Assembly (NCBI GenBank): GCA_963851005.1
Contig: CAWKNI010000002.1
Location: 76,253 to 140,252, forward strand
Length of the DNA: 64,000 bases
Direction of reading: 5' to 3'
Origin: an uncultured delta proteobacterium
GTDB lineage: Bacteria > Desulfobacterota > Syntrophia > Syntrophales > Smithellaceae
Shown here: positions 800-43,912 of the stretch, one piece after another
How positions within the stretch are numbered: position 1 is the stretch's first letter
How the letters are laid out: the number at the start of each line of letters is the position of its first letter
Notes under the pieces: generated by a model
The model's database searches: none
What the model saw: the letters and a program-made list of their open reading frames with translations, nothing else
What the model was told of the DNA's origin: nothing
Program-made: the position numbers and the translations under genes

Positions 800-1264
800 A
801 TGACAGAAAAAGAACAAATCATCGTTGAGTCGGGTGACGCGGTGCAACCCTTCGCATATTCAGTGGGAATGCATGGAAGCAAGTTTTTCACCGAAATAAG
901 AGATAATCAGCGCTTCATGGGTATCAGGTGTCCCAAATGCAAAAAGGTATATATTCCGCCGCGCCGCGTGTGCGGTGATTGCTTTGTTGAAATGAACGAT
1001 TGGGTCGAGGTGGGACCGAGGGGAGTCATCGGAACCTTCACCATCCTCCGTTTCGCCTTCATCGATCCGGAGACGGGACACCAGAAACCGGTTCCTTACG
1101 GCTACGGCTTCATCAAATTCGACGGAGCTGATACACTTTTTCAGCACTACATCAGCGTTGAGGACGAAACGAAAATTCGCATCGGCGCACGGGTTGAGCC
1201 TGTATTCTCCAAAGATCGCAAGGGCAGCATACGGGATATTGAGTATTTTAAAGTAATAGATTGA
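800..1264 (+). CDS. DUF35 family Zn-ribbon/OB-fold protein (thiolase partner)
   Basis: Rubredoxin-like CPKCKKVYIPPRRVCGDC motif followed by OB-fold-like sequence. AGGAG-like RBS (taggag) upstream. Adjacent to the thiolase. Confidence 0.8.
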   Translation: MTEKEQIIVESGDAVQPFAYSVGMHGSKFFTEIRDNQRFMGIRCPKCKKVYIPPRRVCGDCFVEMNDWVEVGPRGVIGTFTILRFAFIDPETGHQKPVPYGYGFIKFDGADTLFQHYISVEDETKIRIGARVEPVFSKDRKGSIRDIEYFKVID

Positions 1265-2151
1265 TTATATTTAAGGAGTCTCCGACGATTGAGATAAATC
1301 CATCAAAACGGATATTGAAATTGCCAGGGGCGTTGTGCGGAGGAATCAGTACCGGAACCGATAAGATTCGAAGCGGCTACGGCAACGGCGATTGCCTCTA
1401 CTTCGATTTTGAACACTTGGTCTTTGCTGTGGCTGACGGCTCGGAGCGCTTCCCCTGGGCGTCCCGTGATCTTTTAAATCGACTGTCGGAAAGCCTTGCG
1501 CAATACGGTGTTCCGGACACGGTTTTGGGGTGGAGAGATCTGATTAACAAGGAGATATATTCAGAACAAAAGTATCAGCACAAAACTACATTCAGTTGTG
1601 TAGCCATAAGGCGCGAAGGGGAGGATGTCAACCTGATAATTTCACACGGCGGCGACAGCGCTGTAACAGTTATGAACAGTGTCACCGGCTCTATATGTCA
1701 GCAGACCGACCGCGACATGAATTTCGCGGGAAGGAGCAAGGAGATCGTGGATGTAGCGAAGTATCGGCTGGCGGACCGCGACAGCCGAGTGCTCGTTTCG
1801 ACGGATGGGTTCAATGATGTATGGCGATTCTGCCTGCGCCAGTCGCTGCTCGGCGGTGCGAGTGATGTGTTTAAACGCTATCCGGTGGACAGTATTTGTG
1901 AAATGATTCACGGAATATTGGAGAAGAACAAGAGCAGGTTTGAATACGATGATATCGGTTTTATAATTATTGATCCGTTTCGGGCAGAAACTATAAAGGA
2001 AAAGTCAGTGCTGATGGGCGGGACGCGGCCACACGAGGAAAAGCGGTTCCAGGAGGAATACCTGTATGGATCTTATGACCAGTGGATTTCCGGCTCACGG
2101 TGGAGCGAATATGCCGATATTTTCGCAGAAGCGGGGATACAGATTAAGTGA
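1261..2151 (+). CDS. PP2C-like phosphatase-fold protein (start codon uncertain; TTG at 1261)
   Basis: PP2C-like motif series: FAVADGSE, SHGGDSAVTV, LVSTDGFNDV, YDDIGFIIID. The canonical DGMGG box is absent, so the assignment is tentative. Confidence 0.5.
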   Translation: MIIFKESPTIEINPSKRILKLPGALCGGISTGTDKIRSGYGNGDCLYFDFEHLVFAVADGSERFPWASRDLLNRLSESLAQYGVPDTVLGWRDLINKEIYSEQKYQHKTTFSCVAIRREGEDVNLIISHGGDSAVTVMNSVTGSICQQTDRDMNFAGRSKEIVDVAKYRLADRDSRVLVSTDGFNDVWRFCLRQSLLGGASDVFKRYPVDSICEMIHGILEKNKSRFEYDDIGFIIIDPFRAETIKEKSVLMGGTRPHEEKRFQEEYLYGSYDQWISGSRWSEYADIFAEAGIQIK

Positions 2152-2338
2152 GGAGGATGTCCGACGCCGGCGTCTCTACCGGAAAGTGCATCAATCCCGC
2201 GAGACTTGGAATCCCCGGGCGCCAGCCGGGGGAGGAATGCGGTATAACTCGCGGGAGGTCGCGTTGATACAGGGAGCCTCCGGCTCCTGCCGGAGGGGGC
2301 TCCACTAGGGTATATTTCATAAGGGAGTTTTCGAAGAT

Positions 2339-2947
2339 ATGAAAGAAAAAACCAAGAAGGACATCAGCAATACCAGACGGGCTCAACTGACACGGGCGGC
2401 ATACAAGGTAGTCGGGCAAAAGGGTTACTACGATTTCACGATACGGGACATCGCCCGGGAAGCAGGCCTATCAACAGGTTTAGTTCATTATTACTTCAAG
2501 AACAAGGAGGATCTCCTGCTCAATCTGTTGAAGGAGATGAACGCCAATCTCAAATATTATCTCAATAAGGCGCTCTCGGCGCTTTCGGACCCGCGGGACA
2601 AACTACTGACCTTCTGCGATCAGGCGTTTGATCTGGTGGACAAGGAAAAAGCTTATTTTCACGTGCTCATCGATTTTTGGGCGCAGATGAATCATAACAA
2701 TCGAATTCGTCAGGCGAACGTTAAGCTCTTCCAGAGCTACCGTGATGAGATTTCGGCAATTCTCAAGGAGGGGGCTGCAAGCGGTTTATTTAAAATTACA
2801 GATGTGAAACTAACGTCGGTAATCATCATATCCCTTATCCAGGGAACCATTATTCAGTATGTAATTGATAACGGGGCGTTCGATTACCGCGAGTACACGG
2901 GGAGAATTAAAGAACAGATTCTCTCCATAGTCATGAAGAACAAATAA
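2339..2947 (+). CDS. TetR/AcrR family transcriptional regulator
   Basis: N-terminal HTH TIRDIAREAGLSTGLVHYYFKNKEDLL, about 200 aa, located upstream of acyl-CoA dehydrogenase genes. Confidence 0.9.
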   Translation: MKEKTKKDISNTRRAQLTRAAYKVVGQKGYYDFTIRDIAREAGLSTGLVHYYFKNKEDLLLNLLKEMNANLKYYLNKALSALSDPRDKLLTFCDQAFDLVDKEKAYFHVLIDFWAQMNHNNRIRQANVKLFQSYRDEISAILKEGAASGLFKITDVKLTSVIIISLIQGTIIQYVIDNGAFDYREYTGRIKEQILSIVMKNK

Positions 2948-2966
2948 TCCATTTAAGGAGGCATTC

Positions 2967-4118
2967 ATGGAATTCGGTTATACTGAAGAACAATTAATGT
3001 TTAAAGATTCAGTCTATAAGTTTGCAAAAAAGGAAATTGTGCCGCTTTGTGAGGAGGCTAACCTCAAAGGCGAGTTCTCAAAAGAGGTATGGCGGAAGCT
3101 GGGAGAGATGGGGCTTCTGGGTCTGCCGTTTCCGGAAGAATTGGGTGGATCGGGCGCTAGTGTCGTGACCTGTTGTCTCGCGGGTGAGGCCTTGGGACAT
3201 GCGGGCGTCGACCAGGGACACCTATTGGCGCTGGGTGCTCATACCTATTTGTGCGCGGATACCATATTCAAACATGGGACGCCCGAACAACTTAAAAAGT
3301 ACGTCCCTAAACTCGCCAGTGGTGAATGGATAGGGTGCATGGGACTTACGGAACCGGGCGCCGGTTCAGATGCCGCTTCGATCACGACTTCAGCCGTCAA
3401 GAAAGATGGCAAGTGGATTCTCAACGGGACAAAAACATTTATCACCAACGCGCCGGTGTGTAATGTATGTGTAGTCTATGCAACCGTTGACAAAGCGTTA
3501 AAGCACAACGGGATTACCGCTTTTATTATAGAAAGAGGGTTCCCCGGATTCTCCACCGGCACGCCATTTCACAAGATGGGCGTACGGGCATCCGCCACCT
3601 CCGAGGTGATTATGGATAACTGCGAAGTTCCGGAAGAGAACCTGCTGGGTGAGGTCGGCAAGGGATTTGAATATACGCACGAGACCCTTTCCTGGGACAG
3701 AAGTTCACTTTTGTCTCCCTTCGTCGGCGGTATGCAGTTCGCCATCGAGGCGTGCACCAAGTACTCTCAGGAGCGGGTGCAATTCGGTAAACCGATTAAC
3801 AAGTTTCAGGCAATCCAGCACAAATTGGCGGATTTGAAAATTATAAAAGAGGCCGCGAAAATGGCTGTTTACCGCGTTGCTCATGATAAAGATTCAGGCA
3901 AACCTCTCAATCACATGCATACCTCCATTGCGAAAGCCATTGTAGGCGACTGGGGCATGAAGGCCGCAAGCGATGCAGTCCAGATATTCGGCGGCTACGG
4001 ATACATCCACGAATATCCGATCGAACATTTTCTCAGAGACGCGAAGCTGGGGCAGATCGGCGGGGGGACATCCGAAATGCAGCGGTTCATCATATCGCGT
4101 ATCTTGAGCTTTTTCTAA
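2967..4118 (+). CDS. Acyl-CoA dehydrogenase family protein (Gly at the MCAD-type catalytic Glu position)
   Basis: ACAD motifs GCMGLTEPGAGSDAAS and KTFITNA. The C-terminal QIGGGTSEMQ carries GGG (4062-4064) where the paralogue has GEG. AGGAG RBS upstream. Confidence 0.9.
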   Translation: MEFGYTEEQLMFKDSVYKFAKKEIVPLCEEANLKGEFSKEVWRKLGEMGLLGLPFPEELGGSGASVVTCCLAGEALGHAGVDQGHLLALGAHTYLCADTIFKHGTPEQLKKYVPKLASGEWIGCMGLTEPGAGSDAASITTSAVKKDGKWILNGTKTFITNAPVCNVCVVYATVDKALKHNGITAFIIERGFPGFSTGTPFHKMGVRASATSEVIMDNCEVPEENLLGEVGKGFEYTHETLSWDRSSLLSPFVGGMQFAIEACTKYSQERVQFGKPINKFQAIQHKLADLKIIKEAAKMAVYRVAHDKDSGKPLNHMHTSIAKAIVGDWGMKAASDAVQIFGGYGYIHEYPIEHFLRDAKLGQIGGGTSEMQRFIISRILSFF

Positions 4119-4168: not shown

Positions 4169-5341
4169 ATGAACTATGATTTGACACCGGATCAATTATC
4201 GATAAAGGACAATTTTACGAAATTTTGCACCAAGGAAATAGAACCGCGCGCCTCCATGCTGGATGAAGCCTCACATGATGAAGCGGCCAAATTGATGAAA
4301 GAGAATATTAAGCTGATGGCCGGTATCGGCTATCTAGGCATCGGACATGAAGAAGCCTATGGCGGCATGAATCTTGATTTAATCAGCCAGGCGATCGCGG
4401 GGGAAGCAGTGGCCAGTGCCTGCGCCTCAACGTTTTTATCATGCGGCGCCTCCAGCGGTCTTTTCGGTATGCCGATTCGACTTTTCGGCACGGAAGAGCA
4501 AAAACAGAAATATCTTCCGCGGATCATTAAGGGTGAAATTATCGGCTGTTTCGGTCTGACCGAACCCGAAGCCGGTTCTGATGCGGCTTCCATCAAGACC
4601 ACTGCTGTTAAACAGGGAGACAAGTGGATTCTCAACGGGACAAAAACATTTATCACGAACGCGACGATCGCCGATGCGGCGCTGATTTTTGCCTATGACG
4701 ACAAAGCGAAGGGACCGGGAGCAGGCGTAACGTGTTTTTTGGTGGATAAAGGAACTAAGGGATTTTCGGCGGGCAAACCATTCGACAAGATGGGTTTTCG
4801 CGGCTCTCCCACGGCCGAACTAATCCTGCAGGACTGCGAAGTGCCCGACAGCGCCGTTCTCGGAAAAGTTGGCAACGGTTTCATCCAGGCGATGCAGACA
4901 CTGGAGTACGGCCGCGTCGGCATGGCGACTGTTTGTCTCGGAATAGCGGCTAAGTGTCTGGAACACGCGAATAAGTATTCAAAAGAGCGAAAAGTCTTCG
5001 GAAAGCCGATCAACCGTTTTCAGGACATCTCCTTCAAGCTGGCCGATATGATGATCATGTCCGATGTGGCGCGGCTCCTTATCTATCAAGCCTCATGGGC
5101 CAAAGAAACGAATCATCCCGAATCCGCCGTATTGGCATCGGTCGCTAAAGTTTGGGCTTCCGAGACGGCAAAGCAGATATCCGATATGGCGGTACAGGTC
5201 TTCGGCGGTTATGGCTATATCAAGGAATTTCCCGTGGAGCGTCTCTACCGTGATGCCAGGCTAGGTGAGATAGGCGAGGGAACATCAGAAATACAGCGTA
5301 TTTTGATCGCAAAGGATTTGATAAGGAAATACGCAGCGTAA
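4169..5341 (+). CDS. Acyl-CoA dehydrogenase (catalytic Glu present)
   Basis: GCFGLTEPEAGSDAAS, KTFITNA, and C-terminal EIGEGTSEIQ with Glu at 5276-5278. Confidence 0.9.
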   Translation: MNYDLTPDQLSIKDNFTKFCTKEIEPRASMLDEASHDEAAKLMKENIKLMAGIGYLGIGHEEAYGGMNLDLISQAIAGEAVASACASTFLSCGASSGLFGMPIRLFGTEEQKQKYLPRIIKGEIIGCFGLTEPEAGSDAASIKTTAVKQGDKWILNGTKTFITNATIADAALIFAYDDKAKGPGAGVTCFLVDKGTKGFSAGKPFDKMGFRGSPTAELILQDCEVPDSAVLGKVGNGFIQAMQTLEYGRVGMATVCLGIAAKCLEHANKYSKERKVFGKPINRFQDISFKLADMMIMSDVARLLIYQASWAKETNHPESAVLASVAKVWASETAKQISDMAVQVFGGYGYIKEFPVERLYRDARLGEIGEGTSEIQRILIAKDLIRKYAA

Positions 5342-5404
5342 ATTGTGAAACAAGGGGATCACTCCTCCTGTTTGGGGGTAATACAACATTAAGGAGAAAT
5401 ACCT

Positions 5405-5842
5405 ATGTCAATAGATACAAAATTCATCGGCAAAACATATCCATCCTCTACTTATGAGGTGGGCAGGGAAAAAATTAAGGAATACGCGAAAGCGATTAAG
5501 AATCTGGACCCACATTATGTTGACGACGATTTCGCCAAAAAATCGAAGTACGGCACGATCATCGCGCCTCCCACCTTCGCGGTTGTATTTGGCGCATACC
5601 TGATTGAGCCCGTGTTCACTGACAAAGAGTTGAACCTGAATATGGCGATGCTCGTGCACGGCGAGCAGGAGCTGGAATTCTTGGATGTTGTCAAGGCAGG
5701 CGATTCTATCACCACCAGTGCGAAAATTGTCGATATCAAAAACAAAGAAAAACTGGATGTCATTTCCGTCGAAATTAAATCAAAAAACCAGCGCGGCAAC
5801 GACGTGTGCCGTGGAATTTATACTTTTGTGGTAAGGAAATAG
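5405..5842 (+). CDS. MaoC-like hot-dog protein, N-type (non-catalytic partner of a heteromeric enoyl-CoA hydratase)
   Basis: 145-aa hot-dog-sized ORF with no hydratase-2 motif, immediately upstream of the catalytic MaoC subunit. AGGAG RBS upstream. Confidence 0.7.
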   Translation: MSIDTKFIGKTYPSSTYEVGREKIKEYAKAIKNLDPHYVDDDFAKKSKYGTIIAPPTFAVVFGAYLIEPVFTDKELNLNMAMLVHGEQELEFLDVVKAGDSITTSAKIVDIKNKEKLDVISVEIKSKNQRGNDVCRGIYTFVVRK

Positions 5843-5852
5843 GAGGTGCGCT

Positions 5853-6239
5853 ATGGCAATTGAAAAAGGACAGACATTCACCGGAAGCGAGAAAGTCGAT
5901 AAATACCGGCCGATATACTATGCCGGCGCATCAGGCGATTTTAACCCCATACATATAGATCCGGAGTTTGGAAAGATGGTGGGGCTGGGTGGAGCGATCC
6001 TCCAGGGATTATGCACACTCGCCTTCGCGGCGAAAACAGTCACCGACTGGGCAGGCGATCCCGGCAAATTGAAAAAAATAAAGTGCCGCTTCAGCGCTCC
6101 GGTTATGATGGAAGACACAATTTCGATACAGGGTGTTGTTGGCGACGTGCAGGCAGGCCAAGCCAAGATAAATCTCAAGGTCACAAACCAGAGCGGAGCC
6201 GAAGTGCTCCAGAATGTTGAGGTAGAGGTCAAGGCGTAA
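5853..6239 (+). CDS. MaoC dehydratase / (R)-specific enoyl-CoA hydratase subunit
   Basis: Hydratase-2 motif YAGASGDFNPIHIDPEFGK. Confidence 0.85.
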   Translation: MAIEKGQTFTGSEKVDKYRPIYYAGASGDFNPIHIDPEFGKMVGLGGAILQGLCTLAFAAKTVTDWAGDPGKLKKIKCRFSAPVMMEDTISIQGVVGDVQAGQAKINLKVTNQSGAEVLQNVEVEVKA

Positions 6240-6256
6240 TTGAGAGAGACCCTTTA

Positions 6257-7231
6257 TTATTTATTGCGGGAGAGAATATACTCGGCAACGGCATGAAGTT
6301 GATCTTTTTCCATACATTCGGGGAAAATATTCAGTTGTCTCTGAGCATCTCTGATAAATCTTTCAGCGCATTGAAAAGAATAATCGATTCCTTTATATTT
6401 TTCAATCAACCTGAGAATTTCTCGCGCCGCTTTCTGCGTGCCTTTTTTACGGGTTATTATTTCTTTAATTTTGTTTTTCTCTTCTTCCGTGCTTTGCCTG
6501 AGGGCGAATATTAAAGGCAGGGTTATTTTCCCTTCTTCCAGATCCTTGCCGATTGATTTGCCGAATTCCCGCTCCGTGGCCGTGAAGTCCAGAATATCAT
6601 CCGTTATCTGAAAGGCCATGCCCGCGTTAATGCCGAATCTCGCCAGCGCGTCAATTGTTTTCCGAGGCGCTGAGCCCAGAATCGCTCCGGTAGAGCAGGC
6701 AGCAGAAATCAGAACAGCGGTTTTCTTTTCAATAATGGTTAAATATTCAACTTCGGTCAGATTTATATCGCCGCATTTGGTGAGCTGAAAAACCTCGCCC
6801 TCCGACATGATATCCCCCATTTCAGAAATAAGTTTTAAAATATCAAGATTGCCGATTCCAGTCATCAGCATGTAGGATTTAAAGCAAAGAAAATCGCCGA
6901 CGAGAATGCTGATGGCGTTTCCGAAAATTTTGTTGGCGGAGGTTTTGTTGCGCCTTATTGAAGCCTGATCAATGACATCATCATGCAGTAAAGTGCCGGT
7001 ATGGATAAATTCCATCACTGTGGCCATCGGGAAACGTTGATTTCCCCGATAACCGCAGAGACGGGTGCAAATCAAAAGCAGAAGCGGCCGCAATCTTTTC
7101 CCGCCGCTGTCGATTAAATGATGCGCAACTTCGGGAATCAATTTAATTTCGGAAGTTACATGTTCATTAATGTATTTTTCGACCTGCTGGAGATCGTCTT
7201 TATATGCGGAGAAGACATCTTGAATGAGCAT
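6257..7231 (-). CDS. ispB: Polyprenyl diphosphate synthase (IspB-like, trans-type)
   Basis: First and second Asp-rich motifs LLHDDVIDQASIRR and FQITDDILDF; 324 aa. Confidence 0.85.
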   Translation of the reverse strand: MLIQDVFSAYKDDLQQVEKYINEHVTSEIKLIPEVAHHLIDSGGKRLRPLLLLICTRLCGYRGNQRFPMATVMEFIHTGTLLHDDVIDQASIRRNKTSANKIFGNAISILVGDFLCFKSYMLMTGIGNLDILKLISEMGDIMSEGEVFQLTKCGDINLTEVEYLTIIEKKTAVLISAACSTGAILGSAPRKTIDALARFGINAGMAFQITDDILDFTATEREFGKSIGKDLEEGKITLPLIFALRQSTEEEKNKIKEIITRKKGTQKAAREILRLIEKYKGIDYSFQCAERFIRDAQRQLNIFPECMEKDQLHAVAEYILSRNK

Positions 7232-7353
7232 TGTAAATTTACCTTGTAAGTGAAATAAACGCAGATGACTATATTTTAATTACCAGTCTGTTGTCAAAAG
7301 CTTTCTTGGGGTTCATATCCGTGATTCTCGTCGTCAACCGCCTTTATGAGGCA

Positions 7354-30537: not shown

Positions 30538-30614
30538 TGGTCGGGATGGCGCGATTTGAACGCGCGACTCCTGCGTCCCGAACGCAGTGCCCTACCAAGC
30601 TGGGCCACATCCCG
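30538..30614 (-). tRNA. tRNA-Pro (anticodon CGG), CCA encoded
   Basis: Folded by hand: acceptor CGGGATG/CATCCCG, anticodon arm CTGCG-TTCGGGA-CGCAG, T arm GCGCG-TTCAAAT-CGCGC; 77 nt. Confidence 0.9.
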
Positions 30615-30786: not shown

Positions 30787-31203
30787 GTGATTATTTACGA
30801 TCTAAAGTGTGAGAAGGGACATAAGTTCGAGGGCTGGTTTAAAGACCAGCATGCATGGAATTTACAAAAATCGCAAAGGCTGGTTTCTTGTCCGGTGTGT
30901 AATAGTTCGAATATCGAAATCATTCCTTCTTCCATTACGATTATGGGAAAGGATTCACGGGCGGCAGGCAAAATTCAGGAAAAGGAAATTTCTCCCGCTG
31001 GCGCCCTGAAAATGCTACATCAGTATATTGATAAAAATTTTGAGGATGTGGGTGATAAATTTGCTGAAATTGCCTTAAGGATACATTACGGGGATGAGGA
31101 AAAGCGAAATATCAAAGGGACAAGCACGCCGCAAGAGGAAGAAAACTTAAAGGAAGAGGGTGTTCAGTTCATTAAAGTTCCTTTATTAAAAATGGATAGT
31201 TAA
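30787..31203 (+). CDS. DUF1178 family zinc-ribbon protein
   Basis: MIIYDLKCEKGHKFEGWFKD...CPVC; GTG start. Confidence 0.7.
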   Translation: MIIYDLKCEKGHKFEGWFKDQHAWNLQKSQRLVSCPVCNSSNIEIIPSSITIMGKDSRAAGKIQEKEISPAGALKMLHQYIDKNFEDVGDKFAEIALRIHYGDEEKRNIKGTSTPQEEENLKEEGVQFIKVPLLKMDS

Positions 31204-31293: not shown

Positions 31294-33612
31294 ATGCATA
31301 AAATTTATAAAAGTATCATTGAGAATATTGGAAACACTCCCCTGGTGGAAATCTGCCGCCTTAATCCCAATAAAAAAGTAAAGATTTTTGCTAAACTGGA
31401 AAGTGCTAATCCCGGTGGTTCCATTAAGGATCGCACAGCATTATTCATGATTGAAAATGCGGAAAAGAGGGGCGAATTAACGCCGGCGAAAACTATTTTA
31501 GAAGCAACCAGCGGCAATACCGGAATAGGTTTGGCGATGATTGCCGCGTCTAAGGGATATAAGTTATGTTTAACTATGTCGGAAGCGGCAAGCGAGGAGA
31601 GGAAAAAGATTCTACGGGCCATGGGCGCTGAATTGCATTTTACTCCGGCTGCTCAAGGTACCGATGGCGCCATCGAAGTCGCTTACAAGATGCTGCGTGA
31701 AAATCCGGATAAATATTTCGGTACTGATCAATTCAATAATGATGATAATGTTGCCGCCCATTATTACGGCACTGCTCAGGAAATTTGGGAACAAACCGAC
31801 GGCGCAGTTACTATGGTGGTATCCAGCCTCGGTACAACAGGCACCGCTATGGGAATTTCCAAACGTCTAAAAGAACTAAATCCGGAAATTAAAATTATAG
31901 GAGTTGAACCTTATCTTCAGCATAAGATTCAAGGACTGAAGAACATGCGGGAGTCGTACCGTCCGGGAATATTTGATAAGGCCAGACTCGACGAAAAAGT
32001 AAATATTTTAGATGAAGATGCTTTTGAAATGTCCAGAAGGATCGCCCGTGAAGAAGGCATATTAGCGGGAATGAGTTCCGGTGCGGCCATGTTTGTTGCC
32101 GGTCAGAAGGCAAGGCAAATGGAAGAAGGATTAATTGTTGTCATCTTTCCGGATAGTGGGGAGCGTTATTTAAGCACGGAATTATTTTCTTTTAAGGAAG
32201 ATATTTCTACTTTTAGTCTCTACAACATTCTTAAACGCCGGAAAGATCTGTTCAAACCGATTAAGGCTGATGAAGTGAAAATGCATACCTGTGGACCGAC
32301 AGTTCATGATGCGCCTCATTTGGGAAATTACCGGCGCGTTGTAGTGTCCGATTTAATTTTACGCTATTTAATTTATAAAGGTTACAAAGTAAAGCATGTT
32401 CTGGATATTGTTGATCTCACGGACAAATCTATTAAAGGATCAGAAAGAGAGGGAATGGACCTTTCCGATTATTCCGATAAATATTTAAAAATATTTTTGG
32501 AAGATGCGCAATTTCTGAATATTCATCAGGATAATATTTATGTTAGGGCATCGGAAAACATTGAAGAGATGCTCAAAATTGTCGAGAAATTGGTCGATAA
32601 GAATTATGCATACGAAAAATTACATTCAGTCTATTATGATATTTCTAAATTAGCTGATTATGGTATTCTCTCCAATATTGATTTAGGAAAAACAAGGCTT
32701 GGGAAGACCATAGACCTTGACGAGTATGAAAAGGATCACCCGATGGATTTTGCTTTGCTGAGGCGGGCAAATCTGGGGGAACTGAAAAGAGGTATTTACT
32801 ATAAAACTAAATGGGGCAATGTCAGGCCCGGCTGGCATTTGGAATGTTCGGCAATTTCTAATAAGTACCTGGGGGCAACTTATGACATTAACGTAAGCGG
32901 GGCTGATGAAACGTTTCCCCATTGTGAAAATATTTTAGCCATTAATAAAGCGATTTCCGGTTGCAGCGGAGCTAATTACTGGATAAATGCCGAGTTGATT
33001 TTGGTTGAAGGCAAAAAAATGTCGCGTTCTCTGAATAACGCGTTGCCGTTGGTTAAATTGCGTCAAAACGGTTACAGCGGCAGGGATATACGTTTTTTTC
33101 TGTTGGCGATGCATTATCGTAAGCCGGTTAATTATTCGGAAGGCGCACTGCAGACGGCAAAAAATACGGTTAAGAAAATCCATACATTTATTTGCCGGCT
33201 CAACGCCGTTAAAGATGATAAAGAAAATGGTTTTGTGGAGATCGATCAACTAATATACGATCTTAAGCATGATTTCGTAGCCGCGTTAGACGATGATTTA
33301 AATATTGCTAGTGCGCTGGCAGCGCTTTTTAATTTTATTGGTAAAATAAATTTTCCTTTAACCCGGGGTATGATAAATAGAGGCAATGCCCGGAAAATAC
33401 TGGCGGCACTGGCAAATATCAACGAAGTGCTGGGAGTAATGGATTTTGATATGCAGGTTGCTCAAGAGGAAATAAGCGAGTTAATCAATAAAAGAGAGGC
33501 TGCCAGAGGCGCTCATAATTGGGAGAAAGCAGATTCCTATAGAGCGCAGTTAGCCGAACTTGGCGTTGATGTTTTGGACACATCCCAAGGAGTTGTCTGG
33601 CGATTTAAATAG
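31294..33612 (+). CDS. Apparent fusion: cysteine synthase (CysK/CysM-type PLP enzyme, aa 1-~298) + divergent cysteinyl-tRNA synthetase (aa ~308-772)
   Basis: N-terminal part: GGSIKDR (PLP Lys45), TSGNTGIGLA, GTTGT, SSGAA, DSGERYLSTELF. C-terminal part: CGPTVHDAPHLGN (HIGH-like), WHLECSA, FPHCENI, KMSRS, and the anticodon-binding and C-terminal CysRS tail. Confidence 0.8.
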   Translation: MHKIYKSIIENIGNTPLVEICRLNPNKKVKIFAKLESANPGGSIKDRTALFMIENAEKRGELTPAKTILEATSGNTGIGLAMIAASKGYKLCLTMSEAASEERKKILRAMGAELHFTPAAQGTDGAIEVAYKMLRENPDKYFGTDQFNNDDNVAAHYYGTAQEIWEQTDGAVTMVVSSLGTTGTAMGISKRLKELNPEIKIIGVEPYLQHKIQGLKNMRESYRPGIFDKARLDEKVNILDEDAFEMSRRIAREEGILAGMSSGAAMFVAGQKARQMEEGLIVVIFPDSGERYLSTELFSFKEDISTFSLYNILKRRKDLFKPIKADEVKMHTCGPTVHDAPHLGNYRRVVVSDLILRYLIYKGYKVKHVLDIVDLTDKSIKGSEREGMDLSDYSDKYLKIFLEDAQFLNIHQDNIYVRASENIEEMLKIVEKLVDKNYAYEKLHSVYYDISKLADYGILSNIDLGKTRLGKTIDLDEYEKDHPMDFALLRRANLGELKRGIYYKTKWGNVRPGWHLECSAISNKYLGATYDINVSGADETFPHCENILAINKAISGCSGANYWINAELILVEGKKMSRSLNNALPLVKLRQNGYSGRDIRFFLLAMHYRKPVNYSEGALQTAKNTVKKIHTFICRLNAVKDDKENGFVEIDQLIYDLKHDFVAALDDDLNIASALAALFNFIGKINFPLTRGMINRGNARKILAALANINEVLGVMDFDMQVAQEEISELINKREAARGAHNWEKADSYRAQLAELGVDVLDTSQGVVWRFK

Positions 33613-33625
33613 TAGAATAGTTGTT

Positions 33626-34447
33626 ATGAATACTTTGAGAAAATCAGTAATAGCCGGCTCCTGGTACCCCGGAGCGCCATCCATTTTGAGAAGGGATATT
33701 GAGAATTACTTTAATTCGGTATCTGACTTGGAATTGGAAGGAAAAGTTGTGGGCTTGATTGCTCCGCACGCTGGATACGTTTATTCCGGACAAATTGCGG
33801 CCAACGCCTATAATTTTATCTGCGGGAAAGAATACGATGCAGTTATTGTCGTTGGGCCGAGCCACAGAGTTGCTTTTCATGGCGTATCTATTTTCAGCAC
33901 TGGTGGTTATGAAACACCTCTGGGGATTGTGCCTGTTGCCGAAAAATTAGCAAAAAAAATTAAAATTTTAAGCAAGATAGTAGCAGATATCCCAGAAGCG
34001 CATTTGCAGGAACATTCTGTGGAAATTCAACTCCCATTTTTACAAGTTGCCCTGGGCGATTTTTCGTTTATTCCTCTGGTGATGGGGGATCAGGGTGCAA
34101 ATACTTGTCAGAAACTTGCTGCGGCAATATATGAGGCGACACGTGATAAAAAAATATTAATAGTAGGGAGTTCCGATTTATCTCATTTTTACAACTATAA
34201 CGTGGCGAAAAAAATGGATGCTGTTGTTTTGGGGTACTTAAAAGATGGAGACGCGGTTGGGCTGTTGAAAAGTTTAGAAAATGGAACTGCTGAGGCCTGT
34301 GGTGGCGGGCCAATGGTAGTGACCATGCTGGTGGCGCGCATGATGAATGCAAATAAAGCGCACCTTTTGAAATACGCCAATTCCGGAGATGTAACCGGCG
34401 ATAAAAGTTCAGTTGTCGGATATGTGGCGGCGGTTTATTGTAAATAA
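33626..34447 (+). CDS. AmmeMemoRadiSam system protein B (MEMO1 family)
   Basis: VIAGSWYPG, IAPHAGYVYSG, EHSVEIQLPFLQ, DLSH. Confidence 0.85.
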   Translation: MNTLRKSVIAGSWYPGAPSILRRDIENYFNSVSDLELEGKVVGLIAPHAGYVYSGQIAANAYNFICGKEYDAVIVVGPSHRVAFHGVSIFSTGGYETPLGIVPVAEKLAKKIKILSKIVADIPEAHLQEHSVEIQLPFLQVALGDFSFIPLVMGDQGANTCQKLAAAIYEATRDKKILIVGSSDLSHFYNYNVAKKMDAVVLGYLKDGDAVGLLKSLENGTAEACGGGPMVVTMLVARMMNANKAHLLKYANSGDVTGDKSSVVGYVAAVYCK

Positions 34448-34465: not shown

Positions 34466-35014
34466 ATGGAATTAACGGCGAATGAAAAAGATACTCTTCT
34501 GGATATAGCGAAAAAGGCAATTGCGGCTAAAGTTAATAACAACAAGATACCTGAATTATCTGTTGATTCGGAAACGCTCAAGGGAAAAAGAGGCGCGTTT
34601 GTGACTCTGAAAAAACATGGTTGCTTGCGCGGCTGTATAGGTTATATAAAGCCAGTTAAGGCGCTTGGTGAGACTGTTCAGGAAATGGCTGTCGCGGCTG
34701 CTTTTCATGATCCGCGATTTCCCTCTTTAAAAAAGGATGAAGTTCGGGATTTAACTTTTGAAATATCCGTGTTGAGCCCATTGAAACGCATTAAAGATAT
34801 TAATGAAATTGAAGTGGGAACTCACGGCTTATACATGGTCCGTGGATATAATGCCGGTTTATTATTACCGCAAGTAGCCGTTGAATACGAATGGGACAGG
34901 GAAACGTTTCTGCAAGAGACTTGCCATAAGGCTGGATTGCCGCCACAGGCATGGATGGATAAGGAAACGGAAATTTATATTTTTTCAGCAGATTATTTTG
35001 GCGATACTGACTGA
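34466..35014 (+). CDS. AmmeMemoRadiSam system protein A (AMMECR1 domain)
   Basis: GAFVTLKKHGCLRGCIG and HGL....G..GLLLPQV. Confidence 0.85.
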   Translation: MELTANEKDTLLDIAKKAIAAKVNNNKIPELSVDSETLKGKRGAFVTLKKHGCLRGCIGYIKPVKALGETVQEMAVAAAFHDPRFPSLKKDEVRDLTFEISVLSPLKRIKDINEIEVGTHGLYMVRGYNAGLLLPQVAVEYEWDRETFLQETCHKAGLPPQAWMDKETEIYIFSADYFGDTD

Positions 35015-40598: not shown

Positions 40599-42671
40599 TT
40601 AACCTGCAGTAACAATTTTAGAAAAGTCGGCAATTTTATGGAAGAGGTCTGATATTTCAGAGAGCAAAGATAAACGGTTGATGCGGATTTTCTCGTCATT
40701 GTCCATAACCATAACGCCATTAAAAAAGGCGTCCACCGGTGGACGCAGCTTAGCAAGCTCACCTAGCGCGAAATTGAAATCTTTTTCAGCGATGCCTTTT
40801 TCTACGCGACTTTTAATATTTTCAAAAGATGAAAATAGATTGATTTCCGCATCATTGGAGAGCAAGTTGACATCGACTTGTCCATTTTTGAAGTCCTTCA
40901 GAATATTGTCTACTCGCTTGAAGGCTATGGAAATCGGTTCAAATTCGGGATTTTGCCGGAATGTTTGCAGTGCTTTGATTTTTTCCAGAGCTAAAACTAC
41001 ATCATTTGCGCCTTCTGCAAGAACTGCATCCACCGTATCGTAGGCAAACCCTTGACTGATAAGTTGATTTTGCAGGCGTCCCTTGAAAAACTCCAGAACA
41101 TCTTTCTTAATTTCGTCTGCCGGTTTTTTCAGAGTTCCCTTAAATAAGGCAATGCTTTCATCAATGAGAAAGTCAAGGGTCAGAGGATAGCGCTTGTCCA
41201 AAATGATATTGATTATCCCCAGAGACTGGCGGCGCAGGGCGTAAGGATCAGCTGTGCCTGACGGCGGCAATCCAACACCGAAAAAACCGACGATGGTATC
41301 GATTTTATCGGCAATGCCGACAATCGCCCCTTCATAAGTCTGAGGCAGATCTCCGCCGGCTACGATAGGAAGGTAATGCTCGTAGATCGCATCGGCAATA
41401 ACTGGATTTTCTCCGGCCAAAAGCGCATATTCGCGTCCCATAATTCCCTGCAGTTCGGAAAACTCTCCCACCATCAGCGATTCCAGATCAGCCTTGGCCA
41501 GGAGCGCCGCCCGGTCAACATTTTTCTTAACGGCCGGTTTCACTTTTTGCGCAATTTTTACGGCAAGCTTTCGGAAGCGCATAACTTTTTGATGGGATGT
41601 GCCCAGTAGCGTATGAAAGACCACTTTTTTGAGCGATTCGATACGGTTCTCTAACGGGACTTTCTGGTCTTCATCAAAGAAGAATGACGCATCAGCCAGA
41701 CGTGCCCGCAGCACTCTTTCATTTCCACGTGCTACAATGGCCAGATCGCGCGCTTTTGTGTTGCTCACTGCAATGAAGTAGGGTAGCAGCTTTCCCTCGT
41801 CATTGATGACAGGGAAGTATTTCTGGTGAGAAATCATTGTGGTGGTGAGGACGTCTTTAGGAATTTTTAAATAGTCCTCGTCAAAGCTTCCGCGGACAAT
41901 GACCGGATATTCTACGATAAAGCTGACCGTATCGAGCAAATCTTCCGTATACAATATTTTGCCGCCGACCTCTGCCGCGGCTCTTTGCGCTTCTTCAAGA
42001 ATCATGTTCTTTCTTTCCGCCGGATCGGCAATGACAGAATTTTGTCTGGTTTTATTCAAATAGTCATTAAAATTAGAAATAGCAAAAGGCTCCGGGCTCA
42101 TGAACCTATGCCCGCGGGAAGTATTGCCGCTGGCGATGTCTTCAATTTTAAGGGGGACGACGTTGCCGTCGTAAAGAGCAAGCAACCAGTGAATTGGCCG
42201 GGCAAATCGCAAATCATAATCAGCCCAGCGCATTGATTTTCTAAAAGGGATAGCCATGAGGAAGCTGATAAGAATTTCCGGTAGAAGAGTTATCGTCGGC
42301 TGTCCGGCAATTGTCTTGTGTGCGCCCAAATACTCGCCTTTTTCAGTGACAATGGTTTCCAGATCGGCGATTTCTATTCCCTGTCCCTTGGCAAAGCCCA
42401 AAGCCGCTTTGGTCGGGTTGCCTTGTTCATCAAAGGCGGCTTTTTGGGCCGGTCCCATTTTTTCTATGGTCTGGTCTTCCTGTTTTTGAGCGATTTCTGC
42501 AATGTAGAGAACCAGGCGGCGCGGCGTGGCCATGCATTTTATGCCGGCAAAGGGAATCCTTTTTTCTGTAAGAGACTTGCGGATGATATCTTCCATATCG
42601 CCTATGGCTTTGGATAAAAACCCGGCGGGAATTTCTTCTGTTCCAATTTCAAAAAGCAGTTTGTTGCTCAT
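40599..42671 (-). CDS. glyS: Glycine--tRNA ligase beta subunit
   Basis: MSNKLLFEIGTEEIPAGF N-terminus, 690 aa, directly downstream of glyQ. Confidence 0.9.
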   Translation of the reverse strand: MSNKLLFEIGTEEIPAGFLSKAIGDMEDIIRKSLTEKRIPFAGIKCMATPRRLVLYIAEIAQKQEDQTIEKMGPAQKAAFDEQGNPTKAALGFAKGQGIEIADLETIVTEKGEYLGAHKTIAGQPTITLLPEILISFLMAIPFRKSMRWADYDLRFARPIHWLLALYDGNVVPLKIEDIASGNTSRGHRFMSPEPFAISNFNDYLNKTRQNSVIADPAERKNMILEEAQRAAAEVGGKILYTEDLLDTVSFIVEYPVIVRGSFDEDYLKIPKDVLTTTMISHQKYFPVINDEGKLLPYFIAVSNTKARDLAIVARGNERVLRARLADASFFFDEDQKVPLENRIESLKKVVFHTLLGTSHQKVMRFRKLAVKIAQKVKPAVKKNVDRAALLAKADLESLMVGEFSELQGIMGREYALLAGENPVIADAIYEHYLPIVAGGDLPQTYEGAIVGIADKIDTIVGFFGVGLPPSGTADPYALRRQSLGIINIILDKRYPLTLDFLIDESIALFKGTLKKPADEIKKDVLEFFKGRLQNQLISQGFAYDTVDAVLAEGANDVVLALEKIKALQTFRQNPEFEPISIAFKRVDNILKDFKNGQVDVNLLSNDAEINLFSSFENIKSRVEKGIAEKDFNFALGELAKLRPPVDAFFNGVMVMDNDEKIRINRLSLLSEISDLFHKIADFSKIVTAG

Positions 42672-42683
42672 TTTTTCTCCACA

Positions 42684-43556
42684 TTAACTATTCTTTAAGA
42701 GAGGATAACCCATTTCTTCACGTTGCTTTAAGTAAAGCTCAGCGCTTAGGCGCGCGAGATTCCTGACTCGGCCGATGTAACTGGTGCGTTCGGCCACGCT
42801 GATAGCTCCGCGGGCATTGAGCAGATTGAATGTATGGGAGCATTTCAAACAATAATCGTAGGCGGGCAGGGCTAAATTCTTTTCAGCAATGCGCAGGGCC
42901 TCCTGTTCGTAAGTGTCAAAGAGTTTACGGAGCATCGGTATGTCGGCAATTTCAAAATTATAAGTGGAAAATTCCACTTCACTCTTATGATGGACATCAC
43001 CGTATTTAACCTTATCTGTCCATTGCAGATCATACACATTGTTGATGCCTTGAATATACATGGCGATGCGTTCGGTGCCGTAAGTCAGTTCGGCACAAAC
43101 GGGTTTGCAGTCCAAACCACCCACTTGCTGGAAATAAGTGAACTGGGATATCTCCATGCCGTCGAGCCATACCTCCCAGCCCAAGCCCCAGGCCCCCAGT
43201 GTCGGAGATTCCCAGTCATCCTCCACAAAGCGGATGTCGTGATCAAGGGGATCAATGCCGAAACTTTTCAGAGAATTAAGATAGAGTTCCTGAATATTAA
43301 CCGGCGATGGTTTAATGATTACCTGATATTGGTAGTAATGCTGGAGCCTATTGGGATTCTCACCATAGCGGCCATCAGTGGGACGGCGTGAAGGTTGGAC
43401 ATAAGCCACTTTCCATGGTTCCGGCCCCAGCGCGCGCAGGCAGGTTGCCGGGTGAAAAGTGCCCGCTCCGACTTCCATATCATAGGGCTGTTGAATAACG
43501 CATCCTTGAGAATGCCAGTATTGTTCGAGGGCAAAAATTAATTCCTGAAAAGTCAC
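42684..43556 (-). CDS. glyQ: Glycine--tRNA ligase alpha subunit
   Basis: [18 protein letters not shown]... The start is set at GTG 43556, 6 nt after the AAGGAG RBS at 43563-43568. The ORF-track extension to 43655 has no homology-like sequence. Confidence 0.9.
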
Positions 43557-43912
43557 AATTTTCTCCTTGTTTTTAACGAAAAAGTGGTCAATGTTGCCAT
43601 ATTTATCTCGATACAAACACGCGGCTAAGTAGCATGTCCGGTTGTATGTTGTCAATATAAAAAGGGTAAAATTGTATTTATTAATTGTTGAAAGCCACTG
43701 AATCGTGAACTCTTGGACGGGGTGATCAAATTATATCATAAAAGATATTAATTCAGCATAGGTTTACGATTCGTTAAGCAATTAATAGTTGACATTCTGT
43801 GAATACTACTTTATGCGTATACAAGACTGTGTGTTTTAAGCGGTAGCGTTTTCTGAGGATTGAGTCTCGCCGATGGCACGACGGCAAAACGAATATTAGC
43901 GGGAGGTGGAGC

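Follow-up and report, generated by a model that had tools for sequence, protein, structure and literature searches.

Cysteinyl-tRNA synthetase (CysRS) owes its specificity to recognition of the substrate thiol by zinc (PMC7373986), and the paralogues of CysRS tabulated in a 2022 review of duplicated synthetases are only CysRS* and MshC (PMC9437257; for MshC, PMC2922099). CysRS*, from the Desulfobacterales, is a second CysRS dedicated to the selC*-type tRNA-Cys(UCA); it is devoid of an anticodon-binding domain and is encoded beside selB*/selC* (Mukai et al., 2017; PMC5389517). In methanogens and some bacteria, SepRS and SepCysS carry out a tRNA-dependent synthesis of cysteine, with the fusions or scaffolds SepCysE and SepCysSN (PMC5424206). 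Here we examine a gene that encodes a cysteine synthase of the CysK/CysM type and a CysRS in a single open reading frame (ORF), situated in a 64,000 nt stretch of DNA from an uncultured member of the Smithellaceae (contig CAWKNI010000002.1, positions 76,253–140,252), hereafter the window. A search of the literature on the fusion and its genomic background retrieved no description of a CysK/M-CysRS fusion, and in the searched literature on aminoacyl-tRNA synthetases we found no covalent fusion of a biosynthetic enzyme with the cognate synthetase for the same amino acid. The architecture is abundant and annotated in databases under two names, yet appears uncharacterised.

The locus shares individual traits with each of these systems. 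As in SepRS/SepCysS, the formation of cysteine by a pyridoxal phosphate (PLP) enzyme is, as an idea, physically coupled to tRNA-Cys, but the class II enzyme SepRS and SepCysS belong to unrelated families and there is no sign here of synthesis on the tRNA. Like CysRS*, the window protein comes from the former delta-proteobacteria and is homologous to CysRS without being canonical, but it keeps the anticodon-binding domain, contains a CysM module and has no selB- or selC-like neighbour, so that it does not belong with CysRS*. It has in common with MshC (3C8Z, 8HFM) the catalytic core derived from CysRS, with matches in the Protein Data Bank (PDB) at 4.7e-35, although these stop at residue 318 of a query of 467 residues and the window protein retains C-terminal domains beyond that point. 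A synthetase module joined to a metabolic or signalling enzyme is also found in GCN2, which carries a HisRS-like sensor domain. The LysRS-MprF fusion LysX is a further case (PMC9437257), and in both the partners and the chemistry differ from those of the fusion.

The most likely reading of the gene, for which we estimate the chances as slightly better than even, is that of a bifunctional cysteine synthase/CysRS whose zinc pocket has been remodelled. The N-terminal module would make cysteine from O-acetyl- or O-phosphoserine and sulfide on PLP, and the CysRS module would then bind the thiol amino acid on zinc via Cys333, Cys518 and His543, activate it with ATP through its HLGN and KMSRS motifs, and transfer it to tRNA-Cys, which CP1 and the anticodon-binding domain, both retained, would hold in place. 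Both catalytic activities are inferred, as are the passing of cysteine from one module to the other and the identity of the acceptor as tRNA-Cys; channelling of newly made cysteine into tRNA charging may reasonably be supposed. To judge from motifs and substitution rates, the catalytic apparatus is preserved in both halves of the Smithellaceae form, and strong purifying selection acts on each. If both halves work, the protein would provide a route from sulfide to Cys-tRNA in one polypeptide, a counterpart in the direct pathway to SepRS/SepCysS, and a natural test case for the channelling of a toxic, oxidisable amino acid. The fusion has been conserved throughout a phylum of bacteria whose way of life is based on sulfur chemistry.

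Layout, spread and age of the fused gene

The fused gene is a single ORF of 772 codons plus the stop, from ATG to TAG (31294–33612, + strand), with a CysM-like module followed by a linker and a CysRS module. The ORF and all the motifs quoted in the initial annotation of this stretch, which was made from the sequence alone, were recovered at their positions: DSGERYLSTELF occupies residues 287–298, LYNILKRRKDLFKPI residues 309–323, CGPTVHDAPHLGN residues 333–345, WHLECSA residues 514–520, DINVSGADETFPHCENI residues 531–547 and KMSRS residues 575–579. The Pfam domains identified are PALP (residues 10–287, 3.9e-71), tRNA-synt_1e (320–623, 5e-79), DALR_2 (661–715, 3.5e-08) and CysS_C (725–770, 1.5e-06). 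With the NCBIfam models, the protein belongs both to the CysK/CysM subfamily TIGR01136 (367.2 bits, cutoff 344.15) and to cysS TIGR00435 (363.6 bits, curated cutoff 340; model positions 2–464 of 466), and it scores below the cutoffs for the CysM equivalogs TIGR01138 (364.9 vs 394.2) and NF008735 (350.3 vs 413), for the CysK equivalog TIGR01139 (323.3 bits vs 350.95) and for the MshC model TIGR03447 (192.3 bits vs 485.1). An exact look-up of its sequence matched no record, and in a search of the PDB no single chain spanned both the CysM and CysRS halves.

The fusion is genuine and ancient, and is spread through the phylum Thermodesulfobacteriota. A search with the window protein identified at least 120 clusters of full or near-full length, with 76–94 % identity and containing PALP and tRNA-synt_1e in all cases; the matches listed come mostly from Smithella, Smithellaceae and Syntrophaceae. 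Scanning one genome per species yielded 78 loci, 61 of which contain an unbroken, full-length fusion (44–94 % identity). Additional scanned copies are cut by contig ends only, and two are interrupted (L047 and L051), with breaks near residues 410–420 and 470, away from the junction. An exhaustive search of representatives at 50 % identity added the fused-length proteins P0121, P0122, P0123, P0125, P0128 and P0129, at 41–54 % identity (the window protein is 54 % identical to P0121 and 42 % to P0125), and several relatives that seemed to stand alone proved to be N-truncated fusions. At least 120 more fused clusters, annotated as cysteine--tRNA ligase, were found using P0121 as query and come from Thermodesulfobacteriota, Desulfobulbia, Desulfocapsaceae, Desulfurivibrionaceae and Ca. 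Desulfofervidaceae; using P0125 we identified at least 120 further clusters, annotated as cysteine synthase, from cultured Desulfovibrionales (Desulfovibrio ferrophilus, Desulfocurvus, Desulfobaculum, Maridesulfovibrio, Salidesulfovibrio, Desulfoplanes and Desulfocurvibacter). The fusion is also present in the cultured isolate Desulfofustis limnaeus (AP025516.1, 3,120,068–3,122,407). Labels of metagenome-assembled genomes (MAGs) such as Rickettsiales and Myxococcales, in the genome scan, and Aminicenantes, in the P0121 search, should be treated with caution. Fused homologues are, then, widespread and already annotated, cultured isolates included, which is the situation in which the initial annotation expected the gene to lose interest. 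The single gene is indeed an ordinary member of a large family; the remodelling of its pocket and the passage from live to dead modules described below are experimentally tractable.

For the comparisons that follow, the clusters among the matches listed in the three protein searches are designated Smithella type (n = 118), Desulfobulbia type (n = 119) and Desulfovibrionales type (n = 120). We delimited the family, with a definition set here and uncurated, by an HKIQGLKN loop, a short linker, a module of the fused CysRS clade and a C-terminal anticodon tail, all of which are found in the window protein; the clade is marked by the signatures ...RR, DFxLLKR and WGNVRPxW, and the alignment covered 237 live and 120 dead-module members.

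An unfused form of the pair exists in the metagenome contig L083 (JGI Ga0452215_034788), where a cysM-like gene (4209–5126) and cysS (5131–6537) are 4 nt apart. The first product, of 305 residues, is 62 % identical to the window module, has the same HKIQGLK loop and ends in ...ERYLSTDLFTA-TGA; the second, of 468 residues, belongs to the fused-type clade, has an ATG start and begins with MIRLYNTLTRRK, and the domain borders match those of the fusion. The intervening sequence, ...LFTA-TGA-tccc-ATG-IRLYN, does not contain a string like TAAGGAAG, a sequence discussed below. Directly 3′ of the pair there is a ThiF/MoeB-family gene (6553–7293) that might hint at a sulfur-carrier route, and no convincing small carrier ORF ending in GG was found at this locus.

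A run of four T (32185–32188) adjoins the junction in the window and, together with the split arrangement of L083, is what would favour a homopolymer error of sequencing or assembly having joined adjacent cysK/M and cysS genes, one of the two options left by the initial annotation; the other was a genuine fusion. However, the same continuous frame recurs in the 61 independent genomes and in hundreds of clusters (more than 350), from different projects and platforms, and many relatives carry TTC GCG where the window has the T run. The ratio of nonsynonymous to synonymous substitution rates (dN/dS) between the window and its closer relatives is 0.04–0.10 for the CysM half and 0.09–0.15 for the CysRS half, and, where an estimate of dS was possible, stays at or below 0.14 across residues 290–320; the junction, too, is subject to purifying selection. 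Additionally, the first in-frame ATG, GTG or TTG after the junction is the GTG of residue 328 (32275), so that a separate CysRS would be without its conserved N-terminus, and the argument from start codons made in the initial annotation stands. Because the unbroken fusion is recurrent and its junction is under selection, an error can be excluded even without read pile-ups, and we assign practically no weight to it.

The linker, SFKEDISTFS (residues 299–308; 32188–32217, +), is exactly 10 residues long in 118 of 118 Smithella-type clusters and 9–17 in the Desulfobulbia type, every difference in length being in frame, and all copies share a junction made up of ...ERYLSTxLF, a short linker and (L/F)YNxLxRxK.... 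The out-of-frame TAAGGAAG in the linker (32193–32200, +2 frame) had been taken for a fossil cysK stop codon plus the Shine-Dalgarno sequence of cysS, in agreement with a recent fusion by a 1 nt frameshift. The string is certainly there, but it is a by-product of the plain codons TTT-AAG-GAA-G (Phe-Lys-Glu), it is absent from the unfused junction of L083, and of the 62 homologous junctions only six contain its core TAAGGA, namely those of the window, L001–L004 and L006, which all share at least 84 % identity with the window. Codons such as TTT-AAA-AAA-GAA and GTC-AAA-GAA stand here in other Smithellaceae, and the deep branches have unrelated linkers. The string is also at chance frequency: the window has two copies of TAAGGAAG where 1.95 are expected, 57 of 100 shuffles have two or more, and TAAGGA occurs 31 times on both strands, including a second out-of-frame copy within the fusion ORF at 31425. 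Only the window and the five relatives closest to it have TAAGGA, and older fusion branches lack it, which indicates a lineage-specific coincidence of codons far younger than the fusion. Neither the relic nor the frameshift thus finds support, and we regard a recent origin of this kind as extremely improbable.

Other copies bear on the history of the fusion. The CysRS half of P0123 (768 aa) is 50–55 % identical to ordinary stand-alone CysRS versus 41 % to the window, which suggests an apparently independent second fusion and, with it, that CysM-CysRS fusions arose at least twice; this half is fully canonical, with HIGN, NITD, PHHQNE and KMSKS. In L003 (CAVQCU010000217.1), an inverted and frame-broken second copy (1086–3388, −), 73–82 % identical, lies ca. 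2.6 kb upstream of the intact one, and is either a decaying duplicate or a mis-assembly of the MAG. One Desulfarculaceae MAG contains two fused paralogues, L050 and L053 (JAMOVV010000171.1 and JAMOVV010000022.1), which are 47 and 46 % identical to the window protein. In both, HIGH is replaced by DLGL and KMSKS is degenerate, but Cys28, Cys209, His234 and Glu238 are kept.

The two modules and the remodelled pocket

The CysM-like, PLP-dependent cysteine synthase module (residues 1–298; 31294–32187, +) is 45–46 % identical to E. coli/Salmonella CysM (2bhs/2jc3; TMt 0.94–0.95), which it resembles in fold, in the PLP motifs and in the length of the selectivity loop; it differs in the sequence of this loop, GLKNMRESY instead of GIRRWPAEY, and in the attached CysRS module. 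The PLP lysine and the TSGNTG, GTTGT and SSG motifs are all present. Lys45, the Schiff-base lysine in NPGGSIKDR (31426–31428, +), is invariant in the 118, 119 and 120 fused clusters of the three types and in 62 of 62 aligned genomic copies. The TSGNTG asparagine loop, for binding of the substrate carboxylate (residues 72–77; 31507–31524, +), is invariant in the family alignment, in which G180–T184 and S261–G263 are conserved. A family-specific loop, QGLKNMRESYRPGI (residues 213–226; 31930–31971, +), has the length found in CysM, three residues longer than its CysK counterpart, with Q213, G214, K216, N217, E220, Y222, P224, G225 and I226 invariant. Within it, the stretch LKNMRESYRPG (residues 215–225; 31936–31968) combines strict conservation with the lowest confidence in the AlphaFold model (pLDDT below 50), consistent with a mobile loop that may gate the substrate. 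A likeness of this loop to that of the O-phosphoserine/CysO-dependent CysM of M. tuberculosis was discarded, as the latter is absent from the 60 listed PDB matches to residues 200–300.

Residues 308–772 are collinear with E. coli CysRS to its end, as seen in alignments to 8qhp, 3tqo and 1li5. The catalytic module, with the Rossmann fold and the CP1 insertion, spans residues 309–623 (32218–33162, +), and is followed by a helical bundle and the anticodon-binding domain at the C-terminus, with DALR_2 and CysS_C (residues 624–772; 33163–33609, +). Both class I signatures are present, HLGN for HIGH (residues 342–345; 32317–32328, +) and KMSRS for KMSKS (residues 575–579; 33016–33030, +). As a reference for stand-alone CysRS we used 98 representatives drawn from as many separate 50 %-identity clusters, with E. 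coli numbering; Asn is the fourth HIGH residue in 68 of these and Arg replaces the second KMSKS lysine in 7, so that HLGN is the form that most ordinary CysRS have, and KMSRS a known minority form. The anticodon-binding domain is also in place, with R734, A737, R738, D747, R750, D762 and W769 invariant. The fused clade differs from bacterial CysRS in a distinctive CP1 signature shared by its members, ...DFxLLKR...LKRG...KTxWGNVRPxW. With E. coli CysS (1LI5, 1LI7, 1U0B), the window protein has in common C28, W205, C209, H234, the two signatures, DALR_2 and CysS_C, and it adds the N-terminal CysM module of 298 residues and four changed residues in the pocket, or five with the change of H224 to Asn.

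AlphaFold2, with an alignment of 74 sequences, returned a model with mean pLDDT 87.7 and pTM 0.67, in which pLDDT also falls below 50 in the linker (residues 300–303). The predicted CysRS module matches 8qhp with TMt 0.92 and the tRNA-bound 1u0b with TMt 0.85 over 485 columns (Foldseek); as modelled, both modules fold confidently on their solved counterparts. A rigid interface between the domains was considered as well, and the pTM value gives no support to it.

The zinc by which E. coli CysRS selects the thiol of its substrate is reportedly bound by Cys28, Cys209, His234 and Glu238, and Thr68 is said to contact the substrate amino group; we read these roles together with the conservation counts. 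The alignment places Cys333 (32290–32292, +) at Cys28; WHLEC (residues 514–518; 32833–32847, +), aligned to E. coli GWHIEC, supplies Trp205 and Cys209. In DINVSGADETFPHCENI (32884–32934, +), aligned to 1li5, H234 is kept as His543, H224 is replaced by Asn533, H235 by Cys544 and E238 by Ile547, and three of the four zinc ligands are thus present (Cys333, Cys518 and His543). The strand NITD reads DIVD, with Asp371-Ile-Val373 (32404–32412, +) replacing Asn66-Ile-Thr68, that is, N66 by Asp371 and T68 by Val373. In stand-alone CysRS these positions are nearly universal: Asn66 is found in 97 of 98, Thr68 in 96, His224 in 96, His234 in all 98, His235 in 92, Glu238 in 96 and Cys28 in 97.

The changes are shared by the close relatives of the window protein. 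In the Smithella type, Asn66 is replaced by Asp in 118/118 clusters and Thr68 by Val in 116/118, and Glu238 is replaced by Ile (94/118) or Val (24/118), this position being I, V or M throughout the Smithellaceae. C28, W205, C209, H234, H37, K266 and R269 are retained in 118/118 and N40 in 116/118; Cys28 is invariant in both the Smithella-type and Desulfobulbia-type fusions, as is WHLEC in live fusions. His224 is still His in 111 of 118, with Asn in five, and the window is among this Asn minority. His235 is Cys in 114/118 and Gly in 4/118, with Ser or Ala in more distant Smithellaceae genomes. The altered zinc site pointed out in the initial annotation is therefore upheld as to Glu238, the replacement of which is real and fixed in the lineage, and not as to the new cysteine, which is not conserved: as related Smithellaceae have Gly, Ser or Ala at that position, Cys544 is not an obligatory substitute ligand, and it was discarded as a general replacement for Glu238. 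From the alignments, the real oddity of the pocket is the replacement of three near-universal residues and not Cys544. Selection of cysteine by zinc normally makes editing unnecessary, and a pocket devoid of Glu238, Thr68 and Asn66 bears on how much change this selection tolerates.

In MshC, zinc is coordinated by three protein ligands and the substrate thiolate. The loss of Glu238 resembles this arrangement and could point to a tRNA-independent, MshC-like cysteine ligase that makes a low-molecular-weight thiol. Against such an activity, the score with TIGR03447 is far below the cutoff, the anticodon domain and CP1 are retained and conserved, and there is no glycosyltransferase or other gene of a thiol pathway near the fusion; we consider it very unlikely.

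Degenerate modules in sister lineages and the possible role of the fusion

The pocket of the Desulfobulbia type is canonical (N66, T68, H224 and H234 in 100 %, E238 in 116/119), and it is the ATP motifs that vary: HIGH begins with Asn in 67 of the 119 clusters and with His in 32, and the second lysine of KMSKS is A, R, S, T, Q or P, with Lys in only 5/119. The copy from D. limnaeus (P0368; L079, 10001–12340) has SLSL for HIGH and KMSPE for KMSKS and scores 395 bits with TIGR00435; its annotation as cysteine--tRNA ligase may overstate its function. In the Desulfovibrionales type, Cys28 and Cys209 are found in none of 120 clusters, HIGH is gone and KMSKS is deleted, whereas the PLP lysine and the Asn loop are conserved in 100 % and R734, D747 and R750 in 120/120. 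The dead-module proteins keep 93 % of the positions that are invariant in live fusions in CysM, 86 % in the anticodon tail and 80 % in CP1, versus 43 % in the catalytic C-half of the Rossmann fold. By homology to 1u0b, the regions that stay constrained would be those contacting the tRNA in E. coli CysRS, so these modules look like pseudo-synthetases, perhaps serving as tRNA-binding domains, and in this they resemble a pseudo-synthetase sensor of the GCN2 kind. These proteins (P0125 and P0416–P0534, e.g. from Desulfovibrio ferrophilus and Maridesulfovibrio hydrothermalis) are annotated as cysteine synthases and have ca. 770 residues and an intact CysM. With a dead CysRS module, the organisms carrying them would have to charge tRNA-Cys by another enzyme.

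The family thus forms an evolutionary series, with canonical modules, modules that lost the ATP motifs, modules with a remodelled pocket, and dead ones with conserved tRNA-contact regions, and could show a synthetase turning into a pseudo-enzyme or sensor. The public names, cysteine--tRNA ligase or cysteine synthase, depend on a score threshold and are probably wrong in some lineages.

Several observations weigh against a bifunctional cysteine synthase/CysRS. Residues N66, T68 and E238, 97–99 % conserved in stand-alone CysRS, are replaced, which is unusual for an essential housekeeping enzyme, and the TIGR00435 score exceeds its cutoff by a margin of 24 bits, the lowest among the live subgroups tested (P0123, 517 bits; P0121, 451; P0368, 395; P0408, 391). 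The same module occurs without HIGH/KMSKS in the Desulfobulbia type and without any catalytic residue in the Desulfovibrionales type, and this decay in sister lineages suggests that the fused family may be a line of paralogues and not a housekeeping enzyme. Furthermore, AlphaFold shows no confident geometry between the modules, with low confidence in the overall arrangement and in the linker, and hence offers no structural support for a channel, and no cysE, sulfur-assimilation gene or tRNA-Cys was found near the fusion in the window.

These observations lead to a possible, though clearly less probable, alternative: a specialised paralogue acting beside an ordinary CysRS. It could be a tRNA-Cys sensor or scaffold that makes cysteine synthesis follow the charging state of the tRNA, with the logic of the HisRS-like domain of GCN2, or it could load a modified product of the CysM module, candidates being cysteine persulfide, S-sulfocysteine and selenocysteine, through its enlarged and more hydrophobic pocket. 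A pocket altered at N66, T68, E238 and H235 next to strictly conserved ATP motifs would fit such a role, as would the 120 Desulfovibrionales-type clusters that are catalytically dead and retain the tRNA-contact regions, and the SLSL and KMSPE motifs of the D. limnaeus copy. Additional species of tRNA-Cys and a dedicated paralogue of CysRS are also known from delta-proteobacteria (PMC5389517), which is a precedent for multiple CysRS homologues in one genome. On the other hand, the complete conservation of H37, K266, R269, C28, C209, H234 and W205 in the Smithella type argues for real adenylation of a thiol substrate, the gene lies in a core translation neighbourhood, often beside a cluster of tRNA genes, and the neighbouring genes do not indicate an alternative substrate. 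The CysRS module of the fusion and, as further queries, three stand-alone CysRS (two canonical and one of the fused-type clade) were run in tblastn and detected no second cysS in the window or in the flanks, of up to 10 kb, of the 78 loci (ca. 0.9 Mb), except for the degraded duplicate of L003. A combined form of this alternative, in which the CysRS module is across the family mainly a tRNA-Cys-binding sensor or scaffold and the Smithellaceae form loads a non-cysteine thiol beside an ordinary CysRS, seems to us unlikely.

Genomic surroundings of the fusion

In the window, the fusion is preceded by pyrF, a SpoU methyltransferase gene, pilC, a tRNA-Pro gene and a DUF1178 gene, and followed by genes for Memo, AMMECR1 and DUF218 proteins. 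The tRNA-Pro(CGG) gene (30538–30614, −) is a synteny marker, being ca. 0.6–1 kb upstream of the fusion in most of the scanned Smithellaceae loci, and the order tRNA-Pro(CGG), DUF1178, fusion is kept in this family down to 63 % identity. The DUF1178 zinc-ribbon gene, identified with Pfam (30787–31203, +), ends 90 nt 5′ of the fusion in the window and in L080–L082, the three closest relatives checked, where the order is kept, and is absent from the D. limnaeus locus; the position of tRNA-Pro suggests that this arrangement extends across the Smithellaceae. Upstream of the fusion there is no riboswitch or T-box, tRNA-Pro being the only element returned by Rfam, and no tRNA-Cys or selC-like gene was found beside the fusion in 35 loci or in the window.

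In distant fusions, the neighbours are unrelated housekeeping genes (MurJ, GlmS, a histidine kinase, ARMT1, DUF3786 and GDPD), and no SepRS, cysE or sulfur genes were found in these loci. The Memo-like gene of the window (33626–34447) starts 14 nt past the stop codon of the fusion and is followed by AMMECR1 (34466–35014), a pair that is kept in L080–L082; many other Smithellaceae have instead a Thr-Tyr-Gly-Thr-Trp tRNA cluster ca. 1.5 kb downstream of the fusion. Two ORFs some 7 kb away (40599–43655, −) are probably glyS (690 aa) and glyQ, as deduced from their length and from synteny with L080, and would represent another aminoacyl-tRNA synthetase locus in the window.

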